From a virus (taxonomy: Duplodnaviria > Caudoviricetes): a stretch of DNA of 54,173 nucleotides. Every line of letters starts with the position of its first letter. Position 1 is the stretch's first letter. Position numbers and translations under genes: made by a program. This document shows, in pieces, positions 332 to 51,371 of this stretch. The notes beneath the pieces were generated by a model. It searched no databases. It worked only from the letters and a program-made list of their open reading frames with translations, and was not told where the DNA came from. The stretch covers positions 1-54,173 of IMG/VR virus record IMGVR_UViG_3300033153_007345; one strand, 5' to 3'.

Positions 332-508
332 ATGGAAACTAAGGAAACAACAGAAAAAAAGTTTATAAGTAATGTCTTAAACGCTGGATCTGACACGCAA
401 ATAGACCCGGCAGTAAAGACGTTACTAATATACTTCGGTGGCCTACTAGTTAGTATAGTAGTAGGCAACTTGATTGGTGATGCTATCGCTGATAAGCTTA
501 TCAAATAA
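332..508 (+). CDS. Small single-pass membrane protein (58 aa, below the ORF-track cutoff)
   Basis: ATG 332 after AGGGT; METKETTEKK...TLLIYFGGLLVSIVVGNLIGDAIADKLIK*; one hydrophobic helix; lies just downstream of the repeated promoter motif. Confidence 0.7.
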   Translation: METKETTEKKFISNVLNAGSDTQIDPAVKTLLIYFGGLLVSIVVGNLIGDAIADKLIK

Positions 509-528
509 TCTTTTGGGAAGGACTTGTA

Positions 529-552
529 CCGATAAGAGTATTATAAAAGGGG
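529..552 (+). promoter_or_regulatory. Copy 2 of the 24-bp promoter-like repeat
   Basis: Exact CCGATAAGAGTATTATAAAAGGGG, 40 nt upstream of ATG 593 (copy 1 is also 40 nt upstream of ATG 332); no clear -35 match. Confidence 0.55.
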
Positions 553-592
553 GGGACAACCCAACCTGAAACATTAATCGAAAGGTATTAAG

Positions 593-781
593 ATGAAATT
601 TCTAGAATCAATGAGCGGTTTAATTGTATCAGCAGTAATGGTAACAGCAGCATACAAGATAGCTGGTTATATTGTTGATACAGCAGCTGAAGCACTAACC
701 GAAGCGGAACTAGGGAACAAGTCAAAACGCCTTGCAGAACTGTTTACAGACCAAGCAAACAATAAGCAACAAAGCAAGTAA
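593..781 (+). CDS. Small membrane-associated protein (62 aa)
   Basis: AAAGGT SD; hydrophobic N-terminal segment GLIVSAVMVTAAYKIAGYIV. Confidence 0.7.
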   Translation: MKFLESMSGLIVSAVMVTAAYKIAGYIVDTAAEALTEAELGNKSKRLAELFTDQANNKQQSK

Positions 782-803
782 CTAATCAACTAATCAACTA
801 ATC
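780..803. repeat. Tandem octamer (AACTAATC)x3
   Basis: Three exact copies between two small ORFs. Confidence 0.85.
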
Positions 804-826
804 AATACATACCATAGGAGTATGAC

Positions 827-1060
827 ATGCAAATAGTACGACGAGACGAATTAGGACGGTTCTCAACACCTTGGCAGCTGCCAAGCACCAATACGTTGAC
901 AATGTGGGCGGTCGGTGCCGTGGCCGTGGGTTATGGTGTCAAGTATCTATACGACAAATTTGGAGCCGATAATGGGACGACCGAAGAAGAAAGTCAAACG
1001 ACAGAAGCTGACAGTGACGTTGCCGCCGGGACTGATAAAAGAAGCAAGAAAGAAGCATGA
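827..1060 (+). CDS. Small single-pass membrane protein (77 aa)
   Basis: AGGAG SD; TM-like LTMWAVGAVAVGYGVKYLY followed by an acidic tail. Confidence 0.7.
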   Translation: MQIVRRDELGRFSTPWQLPSTNTLTMWAVGAVAVGYGVKYLYDKFGADNGTTEEESQTTEADSDVAAGTDKRSKKEA

Positions 1061-1127
1061 AGAAATGAGTCGGTATCTTGAATACTTAATTGTTGACGAT
1101 CTGAAAAAGGAGAAGAAAAGTGCTTAA
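972..1127 (+). CDS. Ribbon-helix-helix DNA-binding protein (51 aa)
   Basis: GGAG SD, ATG 972; MGRPKKK...QKLTVTLPPGLIKEARKKHEEMSRYLEYLIVDDLKK fits the RHH strand-helix-helix pattern; overlaps the upstream ORF in another frame. Confidence 0.65.
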   Translation: MGRPKKKVKRQKLTVTLPPGLIKEARKKHEEMSRYLEYLIVDDLKKEKKSA

Positions 1128-1196
1128 GGAAATTGAACGGACGGACGAGAGAAGAGTTTTTGAATGACCTTTTGTATTAAGATTTTGGAGAGGTAC

Positions 1197-1358
1197 ATGA
1201 CAATTGAAAAAATCACAAAAGTATATTTGGACGGCATCGAGTACTACAGAGTTTTTCTGAAAGAATCCAATTACTTCCACGATGTACGAGTACAAATGTA
1301 TGCTGCATGGAAAGAAAATTTAGGACATACTGAATTGGATGAACTAGAAGTATCTTAG
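1197..1358 (+). CDS. Hypothetical protein (53 aa)
   Basis: GGAGAGG SD before ATG 1197; ends just before a terminator. Confidence 0.6.
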   Translation: MTIEKITKVYLDGIEYYRVFLKESNYFHDVRVQMYAAWKENLGHTELDELEVS

Positions 1359-1360
1359 AT

Positions 1361-1392
1361 AAAAACCCCCAAGGTCTCACTTGGGGGTTTTT
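1361..1392. terminator. Rho-independent terminator, bidirectional-looking
   Basis: AAAAACCCCCAAG-GTCTCA-CTTGGGGGTTTTT perfect stem with A and T tracts. Confidence 0.85.
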
Positions 1393-1591
1393 CTAATACC
1401 CTCAAGCCTCAATCCCTCAAAACACCACCTACCAACCACTTCAAGTATACGTCAATAAAGTACTTGCAATTGTGCTTGCAGGTGCGTACGTTGCCAACAG
1501 CCAAGACAATCAAATAAATTTTTTGAACAATCACTTAGTACTTTTCCCGTTGGGGTACGCCAGCGGTTTGTCAACTTTTAGAGGGGGGACT

Positions 1592-1861
1592 ATGTCGATA
1601 ACTCAGAAGCATCTAGACGCTCTTTGTGAGCGATTGAACGAAGCAACAGAGAATCCATTGGCAACGTATACCAAGAGCGAAGAAGGAAAGTTCACTGCCA
1701 ACATTGGTAACTATCATTTGAGTGGTGCTTATGGTGGTTGGGCGCTCTATCAGATTTGCAATGAGGGTGGAGGGGTGCACGACATTTTTTCCGCTGGTCA
1801 CATAACAAAACCTAAGTTGTGGGATTTAATGCACGCCTATTTGAAAGGGATACGATTATGA
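1592..1861 (+). CDS. Hypothetical phage early protein
   Basis: GAGGGGGG SD before ATG 1592; ATGA overlap with the next gene. Confidence 0.7.
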   Translation: MSITQKHLDALCERLNEATENPLATYTKSEEGKFTANIGNYHLSGAYGGWALYQICNEGGGVHDIFSAGHITKPKLWDLMHAYLKGIRL

Positions 1862-2031
1862 AGTGCGCAAAAGTTTATTTAGGTGACAGTGTTTATGTAG
1901 AGGTAGATAGAGGGATATTTAAATTGACAACTGAAAATGGTTATGGCGCTGAAGATACAATCTATTTAGAAGTACCCGTGTACAAATCTTTTGTCGAATA
2001 CGCAAAGTCAGCTATGGAGGAGGAAGAGTAA
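1858..2031 (+). CDS. Hypothetical phage protein
   Basis: ATG 1858 coupled to the upstream stop; KVYLGDSVYVEVD. Confidence 0.65.
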   Translation: MKCAKVYLGDSVYVEVDRGIFKLTTENGYGAEDTIYLEVPVYKSFVEYAKSAMEEEE

Positions 2032-2375
2032 TGAAATTCCAAAAAGAAGAACCCCTGGAGGAAGGCGTCTTTTACATGGTGCAAGTTTTTGCCACGGGGG
2101 TAAAAAAGAAATGCCGTAAAGTTCAACGTCACATGCTCCCCATGGGATACACCAGCTACAAACAGAATCTTTCCGAGTCGGATAGGGAAGGTTTGAAGAA
2201 AGCAGCAAAGCTAACGATTGGTGCCGCCATGAGGAGCATTTACGACGACAACAGAAATTGCTATATATCACTAATCCGCGTCACGCGCACCAAAGTTTTC
2301 TACAAGAATGAACCTGCTTATTTTTCCGAGAGTTGGGAACCTTTCCACGAGCTAAACCAAGGATTCAAAATCTAA
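2031..2375 (+). CDS. Hypothetical protein
   Basis: GGAGG SD, TAATG overlap, 114 aa. Confidence 0.65.
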   Translation: MKFQKEEPLEEGVFYMVQVFATGVKKKCRKVQRHMLPMGYTSYKQNLSESDREGLKKAAKLTIGAAMRSIYDDNRNCYISLIRVTRTKVFYKNEPAYFSESWEPFHELNQGFKI

Positions 2376-2388
2376 AAGGGGGGTGAGT

Positions 2389-2526
2389 ATGTTTGAACTA
2401 GACGACAAAAGCAGAAGAATAGTAAGCCTTTGTACTACGCTAATTTTTGCCGCTCTCCAGCTAAGAAAAGAACTTCGAACACAGAAAGCTAAACCTAGTA
2501 AACCGGGCCTAAGACTGGCAAGATAG
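2389..2526 (+). CDS. Small hypothetical protein (45 aa)
   Basis: GGGGGTGA SD, MFELDDKSRRIVSLCTTLIFAALQLRK...; precedes a terminator. Confidence 0.5.
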   Translation: MFELDDKSRRIVSLCTTLIFAALQLRKELRTQKAKPSKPGLRLAR

Positions 2527-2554
2527 AGTACTCATAGAACCTGCACAATGGTGT

Positions 2555-2586
2555 AGCCTAGTCGCTTTCAGTGACTAGGCTTTTTT
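2555..2586 (+). terminator. Rho-independent terminator
   Basis: AGCCTAGTCGC-TTTCA-GTGACTAGGCT followed by a T tract. Confidence 0.85.
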
Positions 2587-2655
2587 GCGTTGAGTAAAAG
2601 TAGTGCTTAAACTAAAATTAGGGATCAGTAACTTTTTTCCATAGGTATTGGTATA

Positions 2656-2856
2656 ATGATGGGAAGACCCAAGATCCCAAACATACAGAAAAAAGTGAAG
2701 GTCAACGTAGCGTTGGACCCAGACATTTACGAGTTCCTGTTAGGGATCAAAAACCGAAGCAAGTTCGTCAACGAAGCAACCAAAATTCTAGTCGAGGCGT
2801 ACAAGAATGAGGCCAAAAGAGAGCACTCTGAAGAAGAAAGTCCTACTCCAGCTTAA
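2656..2856 (+). CDS. Ribbon-helix-helix DNA-binding protein
   Basis: MGRPK...KVKVNVALDPDIYEFLLGIKNRSKFVNEATK; resembles 972-1127. Confidence 0.65.
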   Translation: MMGRPKIPNIQKKVKVNVALDPDIYEFLLGIKNRSKFVNEATKILVEAYKNEAKREHSEEESPTPA

Positions 2857-3130
2857 AAGCCTGCCTAAGACATGGGCAGTCAAAATCCAACAAGCGTCAA
2901 TCGTGGGTACCCCAGATATCTTAGCTTGTGTGGCTGGGCATTTCATTTCCTTGGAGCTAAAACGGGACGATAAAGCCAAGACCACACCGATCCAGGACTA
3001 CAATCTCAAAAAAATAAAAGAGGCTGGCGGTAAGACCTACGTGGTCACACCAGCTAATTGGGACGAGGTGTTTGCGGAGTTGAAGAGCCTGGTGCAGGCT
3101 CCTCGGCCCTCGCTGCGAGATCCTTCTTGA
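2807..3130 (+). CDS. VRR-NUC / PD-(D/E)XK Holliday-junction resolvase-like nuclease
   Basis: E...GTPDIL...FISLELK...TPIQ...GG motif order. Confidence 0.85.
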   Translation: MRPKESTLKKKVLLQLKSLPKTWAVKIQQASIVGTPDILACVAGHFISLELKRDDKAKTTPIQDYNLKKIKEAGGKTYVVTPANWDEVFAELKSLVQAPRPSLRDPS

Positions 3131-3293
3131 TAGCGTCGTACTTCAGCTTCAGCTCCGAGTTCCTAGTGGCCATCCTGTCCATCTCTTTCACGATACGGGC
3201 AAACTGCTTCTCGGCCTTTTCCTTCTTGGCAGACCGATTGATAATCCAACCAAGCAACATGATTACAATACGTCCAACCATTCCCCAAGCCAT
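3054..3293 (-). CDS. Membrane-anchored coiled-coil protein, possible inner-membrane spanin
   Basis: N-terminal TM (WGMVGRIVIMLLGWII) then a charged helix; last gene of the lysis block. Confidence 0.5.
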   Translation of the reverse strand: MAWGMVGRIVIMLLGWIINRSAKKEKAEKQFARIVKEMDRMATRNSELKLKYDAIKKDLAARAEEPAPGSSTPQTPRPN

Positions 3294-3305
3294 GATGTCC
3301 TCCTG

Positions 3306-4034
3306 TTAGTTTCGTCTGCCGTGCCTGCTGCCACTGCTTTGGTTACTGGGTTTGATGACGTGCAGCAAAATGTCCGTGTACCCAAATACCGTGAGGCGAT
3401 GGTATGTTTTGGCTTCTGGTGCATAGAACACATGCGAGCAGACACCTTCAAGCAATGGTACAAGGAATGTTTTTTCATCTTCTGTCACGACCTCAGGACA
3501 ATTACCTATGTACGAGTCTACCAGTACTTTCTGTTGGAAACTGATCTGTTGCAACAGACCTACCCGAGATTGGCAAAGTGACACCCCTACGTTGTTTTCC
3601 TTGGTGCCATTGCACTTTACAACAGCGGGCAGTGTCTCATTGGTGATCTCGATCATTCCCGAGGCATGTTGCCCTTGAACATCGAAAGCGCCGATGTAGA
3701 TAGGGCAGAACCCATCACCTTCCATATCTGGCTGTAGATCAAACTCGAACGTGTGCTCCTTGCGAGAACGCCAGCCCTCTTTCTCTACAGGGATCTCCCT
3801 GTGGCACGTCATGAGCTTGATCAACTCCATACGGTCATCTAGCTTTAGTTCAATCTTGTAGTGCACAGTCTTGGGGACGACCATGGTACCACGTCTAGGA
3901 TGGCCGTTTACCTTCATATTTAGGGTTTTTTTGTATGTGGGGACATCATCATTAGTAGAGGAAAAATTTTTGGCATCTTGTGCAGTACAAGATGCCAAAA
4001 GAACAGAACTATACAAGATTGTCTTCAGCATCAT
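3306..4034 (-). CDS. Cys-rich lipoprotein in the lysis block
   Basis: Signal peptide with lipobox LLASC; directly follows the endolysin. Confidence 0.7.
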   Translation of the reverse strand: MMLKTILYSSVLLASCTAQDAKNFSSTNDDVPTYKKTLNMKVNGHPRRGTMVVPKTVHYKIELKLDDRMELIKLMTCHREIPVEKEGWRSRKEHTFEFDLQPDMEGDGFCPIYIGAFDVQGQHASGMIEITNETLPAVVKCNGTKENNVGVSLCQSRVGLLQQISFQQKVLVDSYIGNCPEVVTEDEKTFLVPLLEGVCSHVFYAPEAKTYHRLTVFGYTDILLHVIKPSNQSSGSRHGRRN

Positions 4035-4483
4035 AGCACCCTTCTGTACCCGAGTACTCTAGATTTTTTGTACTTATTGATCCCAACTTTGTTGCTCTGA
4101 TTTCCACCGAGGCATATAATGTAGTCACCGTCTTCCCGAACGAAGAACGCAACGTGGCCTTTCCAACTTTTTGGGCTAGACCTCCAAAATACCACAACGT
4201 CTCCTTCCTTCGGTTTTTTTATTTTTCTGCCAATTTCCAACCAAGACCTAGCTGCTGCGCTTCGGGTGGACGGTACCCCTACTCGCTCATGGCACCAACA
4301 GACAAACGCACTACACCAGGCGACTGAGTCTTTGTGGTACTTAGCTTTCAGAGAGGTTTCCTTGTGGTACTCGACAATCCTTGGATTGTCTTTAGCACCA
4401 AGTACCTCTCTGATCCCCACCTCTTTCAAAGCCATATCATAAGGGCTGGCGGGGATCTCTTGTTTGCAGCATTGGCAAATCAT
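4031..4483 (-). CDS. Endolysin, TIGR02594-type NlpC/P60-CHAP-like peptidoglycan hydrolase
   Basis: DNPRIVEYH, WCSAFV, AARSW, GHVAF and LGGNQS motifs. Confidence 0.9.
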   Translation of the reverse strand: MICQCCKQEIPASPYDMALKEVGIREVLGAKDNPRIVEYHKETSLKAKYHKDSVAWCSAFVCWCHERVGVPSTRSAAARSWLEIGRKIKKPKEGDVVVFWRSSPKSWKGHVAFFVREDGDYIICLGGNQSNKVGINKYKKSRVLGYRRVL

Positions 4484-4764
4484 GCCTCTTCTTTCTTCAC
4501 AAACACGTCAGCGATGTCAGAAAGACCAATCATCATAGATTTGTAAAAAGCAACCTTGTTCTCCTCCAGCTCCTCGCCCAAATCTGTCGCTGCCGTAATC
4601 GCTGGCAAAAGATCAGTGATACTGGATGTCATAATCCCAGGTAGATCATCTCCCGCATCCCATCCACCATTGTCTTTCACTTCAGCAACTATCGCTGCTA
4701 CGAACTTGGCCACGCCACTTGCCACTGCATATGCACTATCTGATACTTCTACTTCCACTTTCAT
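4480..4764 (-). CDS. Hypothetical lysis-block protein
   Basis: AAGGAG SD, ATGA coupling to the endolysin. Confidence 0.7.
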   Translation of the reverse strand: MKVEVEVSDSAYAVASGVAKFVAAIVAEVKDNGGWDAGDDLPGIMTSSITDLLPAITAATDLGEELEENKVAFYKSMMIGLSDIADVFVKKEEA

Positions 4765-4812
4765 CTCAAACTCCTTTATAATGAATGGGGTAACAACTAC
4801 GATGAGGTTAGC

Positions 4813-4992
4813 ATGAATAAACTTTACGCTGAAGTAGTTAAGCTCCTTCTCCCAGTTCTCGTAGGTGTCATGGCTTGGTTCACGAATGACATAGCTACTT
4901 CAATCAATGCGATGAAGAACAACCAAGTCAAAATGAACCAGAAACTATTGCTACTTGATGGCGTTCATTCTGCCACGAAACCAGAAAACTGA
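4813..4992 (+). CDS. Holin-like TM plus coiled-coil protein (59 aa), opposite to the surrounding operon
   Basis: GAGGT SD; MNKLYAEVVKLLLPVLVGVMAWFTNDIATSINAMKNNQVKMNQKLLLLDGVHSATKPEN*; not in the ORF track. Confidence 0.6.
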   Translation: MNKLYAEVVKLLLPVLVGVMAWFTNDIATSINAMKNNQVKMNQKLLLLDGVHSATKPEN

Positions 4993-5787
4993 TTCTGTAC
5001 AATGAGATCGCAAGCGAAGATCTTCTCAATCTGGAATTGTGGGGAGTCTTCCGCCTCGACCCACTCGGTATCATGGTCAGATAGGCAAGCGTCTATTGCC
5101 GGTTCAAAATCACCCGTATATCGAGCTAGCACGCCCTGATATAGAGCATTGTGATGGTCTCGCCTTGCTAGCTCCTGGAGGCGCTTAAACGCTTGTCCCA
5201 TTTAAGGCAATTCTCAAGACTAATAAATGGGCATGAAACCCCTCAAGACCGCTTGGATAGCTGCTGGGGAGTAGAATATTCAAATCCGAGTCGCCACCCA
5301 TCTTTTTGATTGCTCTGAATAATGTGCCGATCATATTTGGTGTGTAGTAGACTCGGCCATCTGCGAAGGGCTCTCCCATCTTCCAATTTTTCTTCTTGCC
5401 ATAGTTGCCATGCTCGACCAGGTTGTCTAGGTTCCCAGTGCGGAACATCCAGAACATGAACCCAAGGCCCATATCTCTAGACCAGGTGGTCTTGGATCCT
5501 AGGTCTTCTCCGTTGGCCCAACAAGGAACTGGTCTCCTGCCCCAACGGCCTTTCTCAAGCTTCGCAGCATCGACATTTCCGCCACCAACTACCGCTCGGT
5601 ACTTGCCTTCCCAGAGCATGGCGTCACAGCCATCGACTACCCAGCCGTGGTCATTCTCTTCGAGTTCCGACTTGAGGCGTTCGATCTTGGCTTGCACCAG
5701 CTCCATTTTGTCTGTGGGCTCTGGGTCTTGAGCTTCGACGGTTGAGCATGAGACGAATGCTAGGAATGAGAAGAGTAGTGTTTTCAT
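4965..5787 (-). pseudogene. Lipoprotein gene split into two frames near 5200
   Basis: 5185-5787 has a lipobox (FVSC); 4965-5201 continues in another frame with no SD of its own. Confidence 0.5.
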
Positions 5788-5804
5788 GTTGGTGGTTCCT
5801 TAGT

Positions 5805-6376
5805 TTATCGAACTCGTATTGCGTAAAAGAACACGTCAACCGTAGTTTGTAAGTGTCGGACGAACTTATATTTAGAGAAACCGAGCCCGACACGTGCGGG
5901 TAGATCGTGGTGACATTTGGTTGGTTAATGCCTACAAAGAACGAACCTCCTGCAAGTGCAGTATCCCCACTATCTGTAACTGCGACACGGGCATAAATAT
6001 TGGCCGCCCCCCCAGAACTATTTTCTATGCTAATTGTAGCTCCCCATTTTATCTCCCACTGTCCCGCTGTCAGAGCTATTGATGCTCCATTGACATCGAC
6101 CGGAGTATCTGCAACTGACGTGTTTGTATTAGATGTAATACTAGCCGCAATCCTCTCGCCTATTTCCCCAGCAGCAGCAGCACTTCCATCGGTAACACCT
6201 TTAGCTTCAAGATTACCCGTTGGCCCATCTATGACAATCGGGCATTTCTCAACGCCACCATCGTTAACGCAGAGCTTCAAGTCTTGATCTAGTGCCCTGT
6301 TGGGCAATGTCTTTGAGGTCTGTCCGATAGCTATGCTCGATGAGAAGAGTATGGCTAGTGATATTAGGTATTTCAT
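5805..6376 (-). pseudogene. Signal-peptide-bearing tail-fibre-like protein, frameshifted near 5830
   Basis: Shares the GVTDGSAAAAGEIGE module with 6937-9858; a natural-looking end FFYAIRVR* lies in the -1 frame (5805-5831), while the main frame runs on into the next gene. Confidence 0.6.
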
Positions 6377-11894: not shown

Positions 11895-13856
11895 TTATTC
11901 TTCGACTATGGTTGCAGTGGTACCGCCCGTTATACCCTCATGCCCCGGTGCGTATCCCGGAAAAGGAAGCATTTGGAAGCTCCATAACCTCATTGGTATC
12001 TTAATCCCTGCGGGATCATAACTAATCTGCCTAATTAAGCATGGAACATTGGTAAATAGTGTACCTTGTATGTTCACATTTAGTTTAACAAAATCACCGA
12101 TGTCTAGCAGCAGCGATCTCCAGGTCAGGTTGACATTCACGTTCTCTAGGTACGCCGATGTCAATCTCAGAATTTCACCAACCTGATTCTTAACCGTAGT
12201 ATTATCATAAAGATTTGGAAATACTACTCTTTTTGAGATTTCCCTTCCTGCTTGCGTAATCGCCAGTGTGTTCTTCTGTACCCTCGTCTCCTGGAAGTTC
12301 TCCTTGCGACTGGGTAAAAAGTTGAATTGGCCCTTCGCTCGGTTGAAGTTGTTTCGTTCGTCTAGTTTGAGTTTGAAGCTTTTCTGCTCAACATCCCAGT
12401 TCTTTATTTGGTATGCGGGAGACGCTTCGAAGTCATCCAGGTGGTTAGACAGAATTTGTAGCTTCTGTGATCTGTTCAGAAACACCTCAAGCCTCACCTG
12501 CTCAAGCAGTGAGAGAATAAACGTGAGTGCGCTCTGAGCTTCGTTTATGTAGATCCTGCTCAGAAAGTCACCTACGGCATTCTCTATGGAAGCCCCGCCG
12601 CTCACCGTTTTGTCTCTGAATGTGTCCCAGTTTGCTGCAAAATCACCCAAGGAAGCATCCGTGTACGTGGCTAGGATATCACGGGACTGCTCGATGATGT
12701 TGTCATCGTACCCACTCAGGTCTTTTCCCTTCACTTTCACCAGCACCATATCGGAGCTTTCGAACGCATACACCTGATCGGTGGTGTCTACTGTAATCGC
12801 CAGCATGCTGTTTGAATTTTGGGCTATTTGGAAATTGTTCTTCCCTGCGGGCACTGCGGAGATATCCGCTGCATCAACTCGCCATGCTTTCTCACCCCTT
12901 CGGATGTAGACCTCAGAGGTATCGAACGCTGTATTGTCGTTCGCAGAGATCACCACCTGGGTATTGTTGGTCCTGGAGGTGTCGCCGTTCATGTCGGCGT
13001 CTTTTCCATTGACCACAGTGCATGGGATGCTTGCTAGATTGGGCTCGACGTTGACTGTCCAATCACCATAGATGATGGGGATGAGTGCATTTTCTTTGTC
13101 AGACTCTATATTCGCATACGAGGATACTGCAAATATCTCAGAGGGGAAGCTGGCATTGATCTTGTCAAAGTCATCTCTTGCGAGGAAGGAGATGTCTGTT
13201 ATCGACCGTTTGAATCCTGCCTCTTCAGTAATCTTCCCGCTAAAAATGATCTTGTAGGTGGACCCAACGTCCCTCAGCCCAAGCTTTACAGTAATTTGGT
13301 TGCCTATCCATCCTGAAAAGTCATCCCCAGCTGGTAGGTACTTATTGTATTTCCCATCTGCGTTATTCAGAGTCAGCTCCTGGCTGGAAAACTCCAGCTG
13401 GGCACTCAGAAACTCCCCCACCGTTCGACTAATGACTGGGAAGTTGAGACGGGCCTCGTAGTACACCCCGTCTACATACTTGTTCCGGTCTGAAACGTGG
13501 ATGGTTCTCTCCGCAGACAGATCAAGCGTCCCTAGGGGGGATACAGCGCTTCCCTTGTCAAATCTAAGCCTACCTAGCCCAGGTACAGATGTGATTGTCT
13601 GGACCCCATCTAAGCCAGCGTCAGAGGCACTAGAGATAGTGATTGTCTCACCTGTTTTGAGACCATGCTCTGAGATAGTCACTTCCACAATATTGGCACT
13701 GGGGTTGGTGTACGCCAGCCATGTTCTGGATAGGGTAGGTGCCTCGATATCGACGATAAGCTCCAGCTGATTCACGAGTGAATCGTGGCACTGATCAAGA
13801 AAATCTTGATCAAGCACGGTAGCTGTTAGATATGGCCGTCGATCACTGTTGCCCAT
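11895..13856 (-). CDS. Putative tail hub / central tip protein
   Basis: Position after the distal-tail gene; IPIIYGD and LDIGDFVKL motifs typical of hub/tip proteins. Confidence 0.65.
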   Translation of the reverse strand: MGNSDRRPYLTATVLDQDFLDQCHDSLVNQLELIVDIEAPTLSRTWLAYTNPSANIVEVTISEHGLKTGETITISSASDAGLDGVQTITSVPGLGRLRFDKGSAVSPLGTLDLSAERTIHVSDRNKYVDGVYYEARLNFPVISRTVGEFLSAQLEFSSQELTLNNADGKYNKYLPAGDDFSGWIGNQITVKLGLRDVGSTYKIIFSGKITEEAGFKRSITDISFLARDDFDKINASFPSEIFAVSSYANIESDKENALIPIIYGDWTVNVEPNLASIPCTVVNGKDADMNGDTSRTNNTQVVISANDNTAFDTSEVYIRRGEKAWRVDAADISAVPAGKNNFQIAQNSNSMLAITVDTTDQVYAFESSDMVLVKVKGKDLSGYDDNIIEQSRDILATYTDASLGDFAANWDTFRDKTVSGGASIENAVGDFLSRIYINEAQSALTFILSLLEQVRLEVFLNRSQKLQILSNHLDDFEASPAYQIKNWDVEQKSFKLKLDERNNFNRAKGQFNFLPSRKENFQETRVQKNTLAITQAGREISKRVVFPNLYDNTTVKNQVGEILRLTSAYLENVNVNLTWRSLLLDIGDFVKLNVNIQGTLFTNVPCLIRQISYDPAGIKIPMRLWSFQMLPFPGYAPGHEGITGGTTATIVEE

Positions 13857-37183: not shown

Positions 37184-37586
37184 GTGTGCCTTCCTCTTTG
37201 TGAATGCTCTGCAACAAGGTCCCATCGTCCTGAACTTCAGTCTCGTAGGTCACATCAACAATCTCGTACTCATGCTTATCAGCAACTTTGCCAATAGTCC
37301 GCTCCAGAAGGAAGTTGATCTTGCTCTGATCTCCATGCTTGATGGCATTGACAGCCACGCTCGCCAGCATCATCTCAAGAGCAGGAACTTCCATGTTCGT
37401 AGACAGGTCGATCAGTTCTTGCGGCGTCATGTCCACAATCTTCTGAATCAAGCGCCTCATGTCCGACTTTGTCATGAGCTTGACTTCTTTGAGGTTGTCC
37501 CTGATTTTGGGCCTGCCTTTTTTATTGCCGCTGACCCCCGGACGAAAAGGCTTCAGGTTCTGGGGGTTTCCTTTTGGGTTAGCCAT
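37173..37586 (-). CDS. terS: Terminase small subunit
   Basis: NLKPFRPGVSGNKKGRPK N-terminus; directly upstream of terL. Confidence 0.8.
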   Translation of the reverse strand: MANPKGNPQNLKPFRPGVSGNKKGRPKIRDNLKEVKLMTKSDMRRLIQKIVDMTPQELIDLSTNMEVPALEMMLASVAVNAIKHGDQSKINFLLERTIGKVADKHEYEIVDVTYETEVQDDGTLLQSIHKEEGTLGK

Positions 37587-38142
37587 ACTCTCTACCCTCT
37601 TCCTTAGCCTTAGCCCTTCGCATACGCTGCCTCATATTAGTGTAATCTCTGCGCTTTATCCGCATTATATAATCACATTCTTTACATCTTCCGGTTCCTC
37701 GATCATGGCCACGCTTGCATATACTCGGAATAGAATACACATTATTTTCTAACGTAGTACATACTTCCAAATGCTCTGGGTTAACACATGCTGGGGTTTC
37801 ACACAGATGATTTATGACTAGTCCCAAGGGGATAGGCGCAACAAAATTTCCATACGACCACCGATGCGCAAGTACACTCTTGCTTTTTCCATCAGGCCCA
37901 TTAAGCGTAAAGCGTCCATACCCTTCTTTGAACGTTTTTGCTTTGTACGCAAACTTGCTGGCTGTCCAAAACCAACAAGTATCAGTCTTATCTACATGCG
38001 ACAAAAATCTTTCTTCCAACGACATTTCTAATTTGGAAGGAAGATGAACAACCATGCCTCTACGTAAACGGTTGTAGTGCTTGGTACAGTATCCCTTTGC
38101 TACATGTTTATTCTCACATTTAGGTACGCTACAACCCCTCAC
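37579..38142 (-). CDS. HNH (His-Me finger) homing endonuclease
   Basis: CSVPKC...GYCTKHY, CWFW, GYG, AHRWSY, HLCETPACVNPEHL and CKRGH motifs. Confidence 0.9.
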   Translation of the reverse strand: MRGCSVPKCENKHVAKGYCTKHYNRLRRGMVVHLPSKLEMSLEERFLSHVDKTDTCWFWTASKFAYKAKTFKEGYGRFTLNGPDGKSKSVLAHRWSYGNFVAPIPLGLVINHLCETPACVNPEHLEVCTTLENNVYSIPSICKRGHDRGTGRCKECDYIMRIKRRDYTNMRQRMRRAKAKEEGREYG

Positions 38143-38362: not shown

Positions 38363-38369
38363 ATTCTAC

Positions 38370-38398
38370 AATGTATATCCAGATATACATGCTGTAAA
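38370..38398 (-). promoter_or_regulatory. sigma70-type promoter overlapped by a perfect palindromic operator
   Basis: Minus strand TTTACA-N17-TACATT ending 7 nt before ATG 38362; ATGTATATC-CA-GATATACAT at 38371-38390. Confidence 0.65.
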
Positions 38399-38408
38399 GT
38401 AGATTTTA

Positions 38409-38601
38409 GGGTAAGCGCCAGTAGGTGAAGTGATATTCTGGACTCGGGCGAGGCTACATAGTCCTAGGTGTAGCTGGACTGATCAACCTAGCGAGTTTTA
38501 ACTGCGGCTCGCTCCCTGCAAATAGCTAACCCCACCACAATGGCAGGGCTAGCTAAACTTGCATGATCCCCCGGATCGCGCTCGGCCCCACGAGTTTACC
38601 C
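38409..38601 (+). ncRNA. Putative multi-hairpin structured RNA or ssDNA element
   Basis: Closing stems GGGTAAG/TTTACCC and ACTCG/CGAGT enclose four hairpins; G-U pairs favour the + strand. Confidence 0.5.
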
Positions 38602-38669
38602 CAGCTCTCTCCCAAAGTTCCCCCAAAAGTATCATGATTAATATTTAAGCAGCTGGCAAATCAGGCGCA

Positions 38670-39080
38670 GGACACCAGGACAGAAGTGGGGGGTTTCCCC
38701 ATAGGGTTATATTTTTACTCCCCCCAGTGTGTGTGTGTGTATTATATATAATGTTCCTCTACTATGTAAAAAATGCTGTCCTCCTGTCCTATATCCTTCC
38801 AAAAAAATGAAATCATTGACAAAATTGGAGGACTGCATTTTTTTATTTGATGTCCACAGGACTGCATTTTGCTGTCCCAAACAGGTAAAAAGCGTGGATA
38901 ATGACGAAATGCTCAAAAACTATGCAAACCCTGTGTATAACTTTATTTTCAAACTGTTTGGAAAAACAGTGATATTGCTGTCCCTGCTGTCCTGCTGTCC
39001 ACACTCCTGGTCTTTCAAACAGTGTGGAAAAAGACGATATTGCTGTCCCTGCTGTCACATTTTCGAAGTTATCCACAGCC
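38670..39080. other. Putative replication origin: iterons plus DnaA boxes
   Basis: TGCTGTCC at 38774, 38870, 38976, 38985, 38993 and 39041; TTATCCACA 39069, TGTGTATAA 38932, CGTGGATAA 38893; AT-rich; next to the primase-helicase. Confidence 0.7.
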
Positions 39081-39173
39081 CCCGCACCGTGAAAACCGCA
39101 TTATTTTGTCACCACAGCCTGGTATTTTGTAGAGATTAGTGTTCTGGATTTTAGAGAAGATGATGCTCTAGAC

Positions 39174-39209
39174 AAAGAAAAGGCTGGCGAGAGGAGCCCC
39201 CCGCCAGCC
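39174..39209 (-). terminator. Terminator of the primase gene
   Basis: GGCTGGCG / CGCCAGCC stem with a T tract on the minus strand. Confidence 0.8.
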
Positions 39210-39221
39210 AACCACAACCTG

Positions 39222-43523: not shown

Positions 43524-43771
43524 TTAGTAGAGATAGGCTAGAAAGTATTGATGAGACTATGCGTCGGTACGCTAGCCACAATCATTATGACGTGCATATC
43601 TTGCTTGCGATAGTCAAAGACCTATTGGCCGAGCGCCGGGGGTTGATAGATAGAGGAGATGGGTTCAAAAAGTCATCCGCAACATGGCAGAGCAATTACC
43701 AGAAGCTAAAAAATATGGTTGAACAGCATATTGAAAAGGGTAAGGGCGAGATGATGGAGCAAGGAAAATGA
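43520..43771 (+). CDS. Hypothetical protein, paralog of the previous gene
   Basis: MISRDRLESIDE...DLLAERRGL; GGAGG SD, ATGA overlap. Confidence 0.65.
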   Translation: MISRDRLESIDETMRRYASHNHYDVHILLAIVKDLLAERRGLIDRGDGFKKSSATWQSNYQKLKNMVEQHIEKGKGEMMEQGK

Positions 43772-46035
43772 AATACCTCGTAACCCCATGGGCACACCAG
43801 CTGAAGTCAATAGAGAAGGCAGCTACCATGCCTAACTATGCGCTGTTTTTTGAAATGGGGTGCCTGTCCAGAGACACTAAAATAAAAGCAAATATTAATG
43901 GATGCTCCAGAGAGTACACCATTGAAGAGTTCTACAGGAAATGGAATAAAGTTGAGCTTAGCGAAAGAGAGAACGGGTTTTCGGGAGTTGCTAGAATCAG
44001 AGCATGGAAAGAAGACCATGTAGGGCTGCATAAAATAGTGGGCGTTATAAGGTCAGGCGAGAAAGAAGTATATGCATTAAAAGTTAAAGGACAACCTAGG
44101 CTTAAGCTAACAAAGGATCATCGTATCCTCACAAAAAGAGGATGGGTTGAGGCGGGGGATCTGCTTGAGGATGACCAGATAGCTTGTGATAGAACAACCA
44201 AGCACCAAAAAAAGAAAACCAAGGTTCAGGGGAGAAAACCTAGATACAACTACCTTCAAATAGGCAAACACCACCCCTATGGGCACAACACCACGGGTTA
44301 TAAAGGTAAGTCCATACGCAGAATCGAGAAGCACAGAGCCATATATGAAGCCAATCTAAATAAGAAAACTTTAGTGGAGTTTCAAGAAGCTACAAAAAAC
44401 AAACTAGCAGCTAGTAAACTGGAGTTTGTAGACCCAGGTAAATATCATATCCACCATGTTGACCATGACCACAAGAATAATGACGTAAGCAACCTTGCAA
44501 AACTATCAGCTAAAGATCATTTGTCCATGCACAGCAAGGGTTATGTAAATTTCTCCCATGGTACATTAAGCTGGGCACGTATGGAGTCTTTCAAAAAAGT
44601 AGGCGTAGAAATGACCTACGATATATCGTGCGCTTCTCCTTACCATAATTTTGTGGCTAATGGAATTGTAGTTCACAACTGTGGCAAGACGGCTACTGCC
44701 ATCAACATACTGAGGAAGAAGTACTACGAGCATGGCCGCATCCTAAGAACCCTGGTGCTATGCCCACCCGTCGTTAGGACAAACTGGAAGCGTGAGTTTG
44801 CCATGCACGCATCGGGTAAGGTAGCAAAGCACAGCGTGGTACTAGAGGGCAGCGGAGTGAAGCGAGCAGCTACTTTTGACAAGCATGCATTCAGTCCACT
44901 GGAGGGCAAGTTGAATGCGATATTTATTACCAACTACGAATCCCTGACCATGGAAAAACTGTGGCGGCTTCTGAAGCTATGGGGACCGGAGGCGATTGTA
45001 TTCGATGAGTCACACAAGCTCAAAAATTATAAGACCAAACGTACCAAGTTGGCGACGGAGCTCGCGGATCAAGCAGCGTGTAAGCTCATCCTTACGGGGA
45101 CACCCATACTCAACAGCCCTATGGATATTTGGAGCCAGTATCGTATTCTCGATGGTGGTGAAACATTTGACCGCAACTTCTTCGCCTTCCGAGCCAGGTA
45201 CTTCGTAGACAGAAACGCCGGGATGCCAAAACAGAAGTACTTCCCTGACTGGCGTCCAATTCAAGGGCTCGGCGGGATACTCCACGCCAAGATCTATAAG
45301 AAGGCTGCTCGGGTACTCAAGAGCGAGTGCCTAGACCTCCCTCCGCTTGTCAGAAAGCGTATCGAGGTGGAGATGTCAGCCGACCAGAAGAAGCTCTATA
45401 CGGACATGGCTAAGAGCTACATCGCCTATCTGAATGACAAGGCATGCGTTGCCACTATCGCTCTGACTCGGGGCCTCCGTCTCCAGCAGATAATCAGTGG
45501 GTTCTTCGTTGACGATGAGGACAATACCCATGAATTCAGAAGTAACCAACGGCTGGATACCCTCATCGACCTGGTGGAGCAACTCGTTGACGAGCATAAG
45601 ATAATCATTTGGGCGTCGTTCAAAGTGAATTACACACAGATCGCCGCCAAACTCAAGGCCCTTTTTGAAAAAAATAGAAAGACCTATGAGATATGCCAGC
45701 TGACTGGTGGGATGACAGACAAAGCCAGGCAGACATCCATCGACAAATTCCAAGAAGACCACACCCATAGGGTCATGATCGCAAATCAACAAGCAGGTGG
45801 GGTAGGCGTGAATCTGACAGCTGCTAGCTACGCGCTGTATTACTCCAGGTCTTTTTCTTTGGAGGCTGACCTTCAGTCTGAGGCACGTAATCATAGAGGG
45901 GGCAGTCAGCAGCACAAGTCTATTACCAGAGTAGACCTGGTGGTCAAAGATACTATAGACGATGTGATTCTGGGGGCTCTTGCTCGGAAAGAGAACCTCG
46001 CCAACGACATACTGAGACTGAGGGAGTTACTGTAG
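43768..46035 (+). CDS. SNF2-family helicase containing an intein
   Basis: EMG|CGKT Walker A after splicing; TNYE, DESH, LTGTP and GVGVNL motifs. Confidence 0.93.
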   Translation: MKYLVTPWAHQLKSIEKAATMPNYALFFEMGCLSRDTKIKANINGCSREYTIEEFYRKWNKVELSERENGFSGVARIRAWKEDHVGLHKIVGVIRSGEKEVYALKVKGQPRLKLTKDHRILTKRGWVEAGDLLEDDQIACDRTTKHQKKKTKVQGRKPRYNYLQIGKHHPYGHNTTGYKGKSIRRIEKHRAIYEANLNKKTLVEFQEATKNKLAASKLEFVDPGKYHIHHVDHDHKNNDVSNLAKLSAKDHLSMHSKGYVNFSHGTLSWARMESFKKVGVEMTYDISCASPYHNFVANGIVVHNCGKTATAINILRKKYYEHGRILRTLVLCPPVVRTNWKREFAMHASGKVAKHSVVLEGSGVKRAATFDKHAFSPLEGKLNAIFITNYESLTMEKLWRLLKLWGPEAIVFDESHKLKNYKTKRTKLATELADQAACKLILTGTPILNSPMDIWSQYRILDGGETFDRNFFAFRARYFVDRNAGMPKQKYFPDWRPIQGLGGILHAKIYKKAARVLKSECLDLPPLVRKRIEVEMSADQKKLYTDMAKSYIAYLNDKACVATIALTRGLRLQQIISGFFVDDEDNTHEFRSNQRLDTLIDLVEQLVDEHKIIIWASFKVNYTQIAAKLKALFEKNRKTYEICQLTGGMTDKARQTSIDKFQEDHTHRVMIANQQAGGVGVNLTAASYALYYSRSFSLEADLQSEARNHRGGSQQHKSITRVDLVVKDTIDDVILGALARKENLANDILRLRELL
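43861..44679 (+). mobile_element. Intein (273 aa) with HNH homing endonuclease
   Basis: N-terminal CLSRDTKI, block B LTKDHRILT, C-terminal YDIS...HNFVANGIVVHN followed by Cys; HIHHVDHDHKNNDVSNL. Confidence 0.93.
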
Positions 46036-50897: not shown

Positions 50898-51088
50898 ATC
50901 AAGCATTAATGAGTGAATCGTGGTCTAGGTCTTGGTCTTGGTCTGTGTCTGTGTCTAGGTCTAGGTCTAGGTTTTGGTCTAGGTCTAGGTCTAGGTCTAG
51001 GTCTAGGTCTGGGTCTAGGTCTTGGTCTAGGTCTAGGTCTGGGTCTAGGTCTTGGTCTGGGTCTTGGTCTAGGAGTAAATGTATATGA
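50894..51088 (+). CDS. Ser-Arg/Trp/Gly dipeptide-repeat peptide 1
   Basis: GTGA overlap with the upstream stop; leader MNQALMSES then (TCT-NGG)n. Confidence 0.65.
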   Translation: MNQALMSESWSRSWSWSVSVSRSRSRFWSRSRSRSRSRSGSRSWSRSRSGSRSWSGSWSRSKCI

Positions 51089-51336
51089 ATCAAGCATTAA
51101 TGAGTGAATCGTGGTCTAGGTCTAGGTCTAGGTCTTGGTCTAGGTCTAGGTCTAGGTCTGGGTCTAGGTCTTGGTCTTGTTCTGGGTCTTGGTCTTGTTC
51201 TGGGTCTAGGTCTTGGTCTGGGTCTAGGTCTGGGTCTAGGTCTAGGTCTAGGTCTGGGTCTAGGTCTAGGTCTAGGTCTTGGTCTTGGTCTTGGTCTGGG
51301 TCTTGGTCTGGGTCTAGGTCTGGGTCTAGGTCTAGG
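50921..51336. repeat. Two hexamer tandem arrays (GGTCTA/GGTCTT/GGTCTG)
   Basis: Directly visible at about 50921-51073 and 51112-51336. Confidence 0.95.
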
Positions 51337-51345
51337 AACCAGTAG
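51085..51345 (+). CDS. Ser-Arg/Trp/Gly dipeptide-repeat peptide 2
   Basis: AGGAG SD, ATGA overlap; same leader MNQALMSESWSRS. Confidence 0.65.
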   Translation: MNQALMSESWSRSRSRSWSRSRSRSGSRSWSCSGSWSCSGSRSWSGSRSGSRSRSRSGSRSRSRSWSWSWSGSWSGSRSGSRSRNQ

Positions 51346-51371
51346 AACAAAACAACAAGGAGAACAGAGTA

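Follow-up and report, generated by a model that had tools for sequence, protein, structure and literature searches.

The DNA analysed here, hereafter the window, is the whole of IMG/VR virus record IMGVR_UViG_3300033153_007345: 54,173 base pairs (bp) forming the complete genome of an uncultured phage (Duplodnaviria; Caudoviricetes), with direct terminal repeats of 114 nucleotides (nt). Within a long block of minus-strand genes (3054-41579) a single gene, g59, is read from the plus strand, next to the lysis cassette. A first-pass annotation had explained this arrangement by inversion of the segment 4783-4995, flipping a holin-like gene out of the lysis operon. We tentatively favour another account, in which g59 would be a genuine, lineage-specific gene for a single-pass membrane protein, standing stably opposite the late/lysis operon and native to the site or inserted there rather than flipped. 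The 4-nt inverted repeat and the tidy operon obtained by flipping the segment are at chance level and have no weight for or against an inversion. The elements concerned are the following.

4783-4786, no strand assigned: GAAT, left arm of the 4-nt inverted repeat, a proposed inversion boundary
4804-4808, plus strand: GAGGT, a Shine-Dalgarno-like motif 4 nt before the g59 ATG, by direct reading
4813-4992, plus strand: g59, an ORFan of 59 amino acids (aa) with a hydrophobic helix followed by an amphipathic helix
4992-4995, no strand assigned: ATTC, right arm of the repeat, overlapping the last base of the g59 stop codon

g59 has the properties of a coding gene

Direct reading of the sequence bore out the presence of a 59-aa plus-strand open reading frame (ORF) with a GAGGT Shine-Dalgarno (SD) motif inside the minus-strand module. 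Codon usage was scored with a model trained on 31-32 long ORFs of the window genome, comparing stretches of 59 codons. g59 scores 18.2 bits, as against a mean of 17.8 for in-frame stretches of real genes; none of 211 best-antisense stretches reaches this value. Among the 143 plus-strand ORFs of at least 40 aa lying inside 3300-38200, g59 ranks first, the runner-up scoring 13.9.

The position of the ORF points the same way. The 200 nt from 4765 to 4964 are the only stretch of more than 100 nt lacking a minus-strand ORF in the structural/lysis chain (3054-38362; the 859-nt non-coding region 38363-39221 lies outside it), and g59 fills them almost exactly. The other gap in the chain, of 319 nt, holds an 85-aa minus-strand ORF. 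An RNA element was rejected as the explanation of the gap: the minus-strand RNA of these 200 nt has no excess structure (z -0.39) and matches no Rfam family, and Rfam families and tRNAs are absent across the genome. The codon score, the SD motif at proper spacing, the filled gap and the lack of minus-strand RNA structure thus make g59 very probably a real coding gene.

The predicted protein has a Kyte-Doolittle hydropathy of 2.07 over residues 8-24, and the single-sequence AlphaFold2 model is one helix spanning residues 2-55 (mean predicted local distance difference test, pLDDT, 85.9). Both results back the transmembrane (TM) segment claimed at first pass. The coiled coil claimed alongside it is suggested by about three heptads read by eye.

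Homology searches returned next to nothing. No Pfam family matches g59, and its matches among PHROGs are to families of unknown function (phrog_2128 at E 0.0034, the next at E 0.083). A search of 5.8 billion clusters retrieved g59 itself only, and a single-query search of viral contigs gave no relative. The full HMMER search of a library of 1.84 billion representatives produced five matches at E up to 0.001, one of which is g59; the other four are proteins of 491-1897 aa matched in 7-16 stretches each, and were rejected as relatives and read as repetitive coil proteins. On these searches g59 is an ORFan, unique to this genome.

Flipping almost any such segment yields a tidy operon

The words GAAT and ATTC do occur at 4783-4786 and 4992-4995. 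When 4783-4995 is flipped by script, the minus-strand ORF upstream grows from 78 to 79 codons, its new end being nine codons (GVTTTMRLA, then the stop) that likewise form the end of a plus-strand ORF at 4556-4816. The in-frame extension claimed for the upstream lipoprotein is therefore real in length; the extended ORF is no lipoprotein by itself. After the flip its TGA overlaps the g59 ATG (gap -4), and the g59 stop lies 21 nt before the next ATG, with the AAGGAG motif in place (plus strand CTCCTT, 4771-4776), as had been described. The ATGA arrangement, said to be common in this genome, corresponds to 4-nt overlaps at 6 of the 34 junctions of the minus-strand chain; these include both of the following junctions of the lysis cassette.

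To judge these features we enumerated all flips with a left end between the SD motif of the next cassette gene, g94, and that of g59, and a right end up to 29 nt past the g59 stop, giving 696 admissible boundary pairs. Two pairs end in an inverted repeat of 4 nt or more, against 2.7 expected (696/256), and GAAT/ATTC is one of the two. The junction gap falls between -4 and +30 in 463 pairs (67%) and the exact ATGA overlap is obtained in 229 (33%). The "restored operon" is uninformative because almost any flip of a small gene with its own SD motif produces one. In a local inverted-repeat scan, none of the 25 longest of 31 pairs brackets 4783-4995; the longest is 19 nt at 74% identity, with arms inside the g94 and g200 coding regions. 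Strand skew was also considered as a means of dating an inversion and rejected, as it merely tracks coding direction in both arms.

The nearest relatives carry a different lysis cassette

g59 lies between a four-gene minus-strand cassette and a divided gene:

4480-4764, minus strand: g94, an acidic protein of 94 aa, with an AAGGAG SD motif 6 nt before the ATG (plus strand 4771-4776)
4031-4483, minus strand: lys150, a CHAP/NlpC-P60 peptidoglycan peptidase (endolysin)
3306-4034, minus strand: g242, 242 aa, lipoprotein-like (signal peptide ending in Cys, by reading)
3054-3293, minus strand: g79, 79 aa, a TM segment and a charged helix, last gene of the cassette
4965-5201, minus strand: g78, a C-terminal fragment of 78 aa with neither an SD motif nor a signal peptide
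5185-5787, minus strand: g200, an N-terminal fragment of 200 aa with a signal peptide with Cys, lipoprotein-like by reading

g94, the first co-oriented gene of the cassette, belongs to no Pfam or PHROG family. Its sole homologue is P0003, a 102-aa protein with 44% identity on a 2,036-bp contig; g94 as a single query found nothing in viral contigs, nor did the g94/P0003 alignment in viral or genome contigs. Kinship with a 99-aa family was rejected (hhalign probability 0.13%). lys150 matches CHAP (E 5.4e-9) and NLPC_P60 (E 9.9e-5) in Pfam, and phrog_1259 (E 5.4e-32) as well as endolysin families among PHROGs. Nineteen relatives with 38-52% identity were found in other viral contigs; these loci are uninformative on synteny because none of the 11 other neighbouring proteins of the window that were queried is shared with them. 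No homologue of g242 was found in viral contigs. A hairpin of 14 pairs with a T-rich run behind it, resembling a terminator, occurs at 3968-4000 on the minus strand, just past the endolysin gene and inside the 5′ end of g242; it may be due to chance. g79 has a hydropathy of 1.89 over residues 2-18 and weak PHROG matches (phrog_3671, E 4.7e-5; phrog_739, "Rz-like spanin", E 4.6e-4), which make it a candidate for a co-oriented holin or spanin-like protein.

These neighbours bear on the description of g59 as holin-like. Its architecture and position fit, g59 being small, with one TM helix, 330 nt away from the CHAP endolysin gene. Support from a described family is missing: unlike canonical holins, g59 matches no holin family in Pfam or PHROGs, and it lies on the strand opposite the endolysin gene, whereas the co-oriented TM protein g79 stands at the other end of the cassette. 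The literature on holins in opposite orientation yielded only statements on lysogeny modules.

Related phages were sought with the tail-region protein encoded at 11895-13856, which identified four related viral contigs, the closest being L021 (68% identity in this protein and 57-79% in four neighbouring proteins). The lipoprotein family to which g200 and g78 belong (see below) led to three more loci in metagenomes (L025, L026 and L027) and to L028 and L030 in viral contigs. L029 and L021 are a single record, and L027 was left out as it ends inside the lipoprotein gene. Five relatives extend beyond the lipoprotein homologue, and the gene that follows it in each is listed here.

L021: a 139-aa TM-plus-coil protein, co-oriented, 17-nt overlap
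L026: a 143-aa homologue of the L021 protein, co-oriented, 20-nt overlap
L030: a TM-plus-coil protein, co-oriented, its likely ATG overlapping the stop by 1 nt (our own reading)
L028: an NlpC/P60 lysin, co-oriented
L025: a 773-aa protein, co-oriented

L024 has no lipoprotein gene; the first gene of its lysis cassette is again co-oriented and encodes a TM-coil family member of 112 aa. This family, to which L030 is assigned by architecture, resembles g59 in occupying the slot ahead of the lysin, after a lipoprotein-family or fibre gene, and in having an N-terminal TM segment followed by a helix. It differs in strand, in length (112-143 aa, g59 being less than half as long) and in sequence, and has no annotated function. 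Homology of g59 to the TM-coil family was rejected: hhalign gave probabilities of 0.2% and 0.8%, and the Smith-Waterman score against a TM-coil protein was equalled by 1101 of 2000 shuffles. For g79, kinship with the same family was rejected as well, a z of 3.95 in the shuffle test being the only sign of it. No match to g59 was found in any of the four searchable records of relatives.

None of g79, g242, lys150, g94 and g59 matches L021 by tblastn at E <0.01. The corresponding cassettes (17357-19395 in L021 and 18030-19838 in L024, compared with 3054-4764 on the minus strand of the window) contain the TM-coil protein, small TM proteins and an amidase-type lysin, where the window has a CHAP peptidase, and show no detectable homology to the cassette of the window. 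By these sequence comparisons, the lysis cassette is exchanged relative to the nearest relatives, and g59 may therefore have arrived with it.

The adjacent lipoprotein-family gene is split

In the five relatives the lipoprotein homologue is a whole gene of 308-339 aa. Aligned with hhalign to the profile of this five-sequence family (A8), residues 1-198 of g200 cover columns 1-211 (probability 99.7%, E 1.7e-26) and residues 3-41 of g78 cover columns 219-258 (probability 91.8%, E 7.6e-7), g78 being collinear with the ends of the homologues. Three-frame translation places the two ORFs in different frames, overlapping by 17 nt at 5185-5201. Since the gene is whole in relatives and the fragments match consecutive columns of the profile, g200 and g78 are, judging from the alignments, parts of one lipoprotein-family gene that a frame change at 5185-5201 has divided; the change may be a real frameshift mutation or a sequencing error. 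The C-terminal residues of the homologues are D, D, D, N and L; a conserved terminal Asp was accordingly dropped as a sign of the present orientation.

Used as a single query, g200 had no match in viral contigs, and the alignment of the family had none in genome contigs. The family was modelled with AlphaFold2 (mean pLDDT 72.3, predicted template-modelling score 0.76), and the model gave weak Foldseek matches to alpha/alpha-toroid enzymes, of the terpene cyclase and GH8-type glucanase or chitosanase types (best E 0.023, template-modelling scores of about 0.45-0.5), a likeness to be taken as a lead only.

Upstream of the split gene, a 241-aa minus-strand ORF (g241, 5651-6376) runs 137 nt into g200 and has an Arg-rich tail. 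Its similarity to the 205-aa counterpart in L021, which stops exactly where the next gene starts, is confined to the first 49 residues. g241 may have lost its stop codon or carry a second frame error.

Expression signals and comparison with reverse-strand "moron" genes

Two sigma-70-like sites lie within 95 nt upstream of g59. The promoter scan identified TTGCCA-17-GATACT at 4719-4747 (9 of 12 matches); the second, read by eye, has a perfect TATAAT at 4777-4782 and a -35 hexamer matching 3 of 6 positions, 9 of 12 overall.

A comparable arrangement is found in Pseudomonas phage JBD26. According to the report on it (PMC10884400), the 83-residue gene Tab lies on the opposite strand inside the late operon; a promoter of its own has been demonstrated, and the prophage expresses it. 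g59, at 59 residues, is like Tab in being a small, ORFan-like gene squeezed between late genes on the opposite strand; it differs from the Tab described there in that the window has no integrase, that neither a convincing promoter nor a terminator was found and that the composition is not foreign. Of the properties that characterize such "moron" genes, absence from the same position in related phages agrees with the lack of a g59 match in the four relatives' records. A composition differing from the surroundings was not observed, the G+C content being 41.5% and the codon score resident-like. As the genome contains no integrase, a role for g59 as a prophage-expressed "moron" is unlikely.

Native placement versus inversion

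In the account we prefer, g59 would sit between the end of the split lipoprotein-family gene and the cassette g94 - CHAP endolysin - g242 - g79, in the orientation in which it entered or arose in the lineage, and it would have come together with, or next to, the cassette that was swapped relative to the nearest relatives. Its expression, if any, would come from a weak promoter inside the 5′ end of g94. The g59 mRNA would be antisense to the late transcript, so that production would fall once late transcription starts. g59 may thus be transcribed independently and with a timing of its own, and might act in lysis as a holin, an antiholin or an exclusion protein. Native placement is favoured by the precedent of small genes inserted on the reverse strand of late operons, such as Tab, by the intact ORF, by the sigma-70-like sites upstream of it in a phage with sigma-70-like early promoters, and by a cassette foreign to the relatives.

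The competing explanation is a fixed, one-off illegitimate inversion of approximately 210 bp (about 4783-4995) that put the first gene of the lysis cassette antisense, not reversibly. The gene would originally have occupied the holin position, translationally coupled to the lipoprotein gene; the flip would have uncoupled and probably silenced it. We consider this possible and less probable than not. Several observations weigh against native placement or insertion, and most of them favour the inversion. The gene in the slot is co-oriented, abutting or overlapping in 5 of 5 relatives and encodes a TM-plus-coil protein in three of them (L021, L026 and L030), a protein of this kind being also the first of the L024 cassette; g59 shares that architecture. 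Packing is tight, the 48-nt divergent spacer between g59 and g94 leaving no room for a divergent promoter and the 3′ ends of g59 and g78 overlapping convergently by 28 nt. The scan found no terminator-like site after g59 (past 4992), and the region has no excess of promoter-like sites (3 observed, 5.1 expected from shuffles). There is no foreign signature: the G+C content of 4800-4999 is inside the local range of 38-57%, and the codon usage of g59 is that of the resident genes, the phage's own. The lack of an integrase counts against native placement or insertion as well. In addition, the flip restores a 4-nt overlap like those at the next two junctions of the cassette, and the adjacent lipoprotein gene is damaged too, which may mean that selection on the region is relaxed.

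Against the inversion stand the chance level of the repeat and of the flipped operon, the lack of detectable homology between g59 and the TM-coil family and the difference in length from it. The ORF is still intact, with promoter-like sites upstream, and the C termini of the lipoprotein homologues vary too much to speak for one orientation or the other. Moreover, phage genomes generally show few repeat-free inversions of single genes, whereas insertions of reverse-strand genes are more common.

The first-pass annotation had concluded that the ancestral orientation was the reverse of the present one. Because the slot gene is co-oriented in 5 of 5 relatives, there is independent, though indirect, support for the present orientation being the derived state; none of these genes is detectably homologous to g59, and the whole cassette of the window differs from theirs. 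What remains to argue for an inversion is synteny, which leaves it a doubtful proposition. The data do not distinguish an inversion from insertion or native placement.

Less probable explanations

The g59 frame might not be a gene, 4765-4964 being a non-coding spacer of the late transcript, left by the cassette exchange and open by chance. Lack of homologues and of a Pfam family fits this idea, as do the ESM Atlas look-alikes, which are unnamed small viral proteins with a score of 0.92 that 4-10 of 100 shuffled proteins also reach. It is nonetheless unlikely, given a codon score typical of real genes and the best of 143 plus-strand ORFs, the correctly spaced SD motif, the near-exact fit of the ORF to the gap, the hydrophobic helix predicted with high confidence and the absence of a structure signal in the minus-strand RNA.

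More unlikely still is an assembly or amplification artefact, in which case the segment would be the other way round in the true genome. The record was assembled from a metagenome, and two other frame anomalies, the g200/g78 split and the run of g241 into g200, lie no more than 1 kb away. In de Bruijn assembly, a local mis-oriented join needs an inverted repeat of k-mer size, and no such repeat flanks the segment; intact ORFs of 2262, 973 and 785 aa also indicate a low error rate.

A reversible on/off switch, by which a host or phage recombinase would flip the segment within the population and so control a lysis gene, is the least probable of all: a membrane-protein gene with its SD motif does lie between two inverted 4-nt words, but the repeat is at chance level, and the proposal is unsupported, since the genome lacks four recombinase families and the segment has no longer inverted repeat at its flanks. 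The statement that no invertase could be recognised held up in a six-frame search of the genome, in which Resolvase (PF00239), Phage_integrase (PF00589), Recombinase (PF07508) and DEDD_Tnp_IS110 (PF01548) each gave no match, whereas control genomes gave positive ones. Among the listed repeats there is no second copy of the segment or of its ends. Nothing points to a host-encoded recombinase acting on the segment, though one might. Invertons typically have flanking inverted repeats of well over 10 nt; the Hin/Gin/Cin phage and flagellar switches and the fim-type invertons work with a recombinase of their own and with inverted repeats tens of bases long. The flip proposed here would resemble those systems in changing the strand, and thereby the expression, of a gene on a short segment; it differs from them in its 4-nt repeat and in the absence of the four families.

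Genome organization and other features

Genes run on the plus strand from 332 to 3130, on the minus strand from 3054 to 41579, and on the plus strand again from 41743 to the end. The structural and packaging set comprises an HK97-type capsid protein, a portal, a prohead protease and a large terminase, and the replication set a family-A DNA polymerase, a D5-like primase-helicase, an exonuclease and an SNF2 helicase. Among GenBank phages, blastn with the window DNA and tblastn with the tail-region (baseplate-region) protein gave no matches, and the best identity of the terminase was 28.5%; by these comparisons the phage has no close cultured relative.

Sigma-70-like -35 and -10 hexamers occur in a 28-nt repeat whose copies, 96% identical, lie on the plus strand at 264-291 and 525-552, ahead of the first two early genes; both copies are likely early promoters. 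The non-coding region 38363-39221 separates the primase-helicase gene from the genes on the terminase side. Two exact 21-nt repeats are found in it (at 38971-38991 and at 39036-39056) along with numerous words resembling GGACAGCA, and it may be an origin or a regulatory region. An HNH_3 endonuclease gene (37579-38142, minus strand; E 1.9e-8) lies directly upstream of the genes for a DUF5681 protein and the large terminase. The SNF2-type helicase gene (43768-46035, plus strand) contains an intein (Intein_splicing, E 2e-11, residues 83-304, with an HNH_3 motif at 223-251). Between two plus-strand genes of the replication module, 50922-51336 consists of two blocks with about 68 hexanucleotide units (consensus GGTCTA) altogether; each of the six frames is open and reads as dipeptide repeats. 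The interval 50899-51350 was rejected as a second reverse-strand island for this reason, being a hexanucleotide tandem repeat.

Discussion

The locus as it stands is ordinary, a lone reverse-strand ORFan in the late region of a phage, of which examples are known. The positive outcomes are that the small ORF is very likely coding, that its lipoprotein-family neighbour is split and that the lysis cassette differs by exchange from that of the nearest relatives. A 4-nt inverted repeat or a tidy flipped operon should not be taken as evidence of inversion, as one-third to two-thirds of arbitrary flips look alike.

A recent, repeat-independent inversion of approximately 210 bp, should the doubtful case for one hold, would make the phage either a natural lysis-timing mutant or the bearer of an antisense lysis timer that shuts off a membrane protein made early. 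If a co-oriented form exists, the locus would provide a clean natural example of a repeat-independent micro-inversion rewiring a lysis gene.

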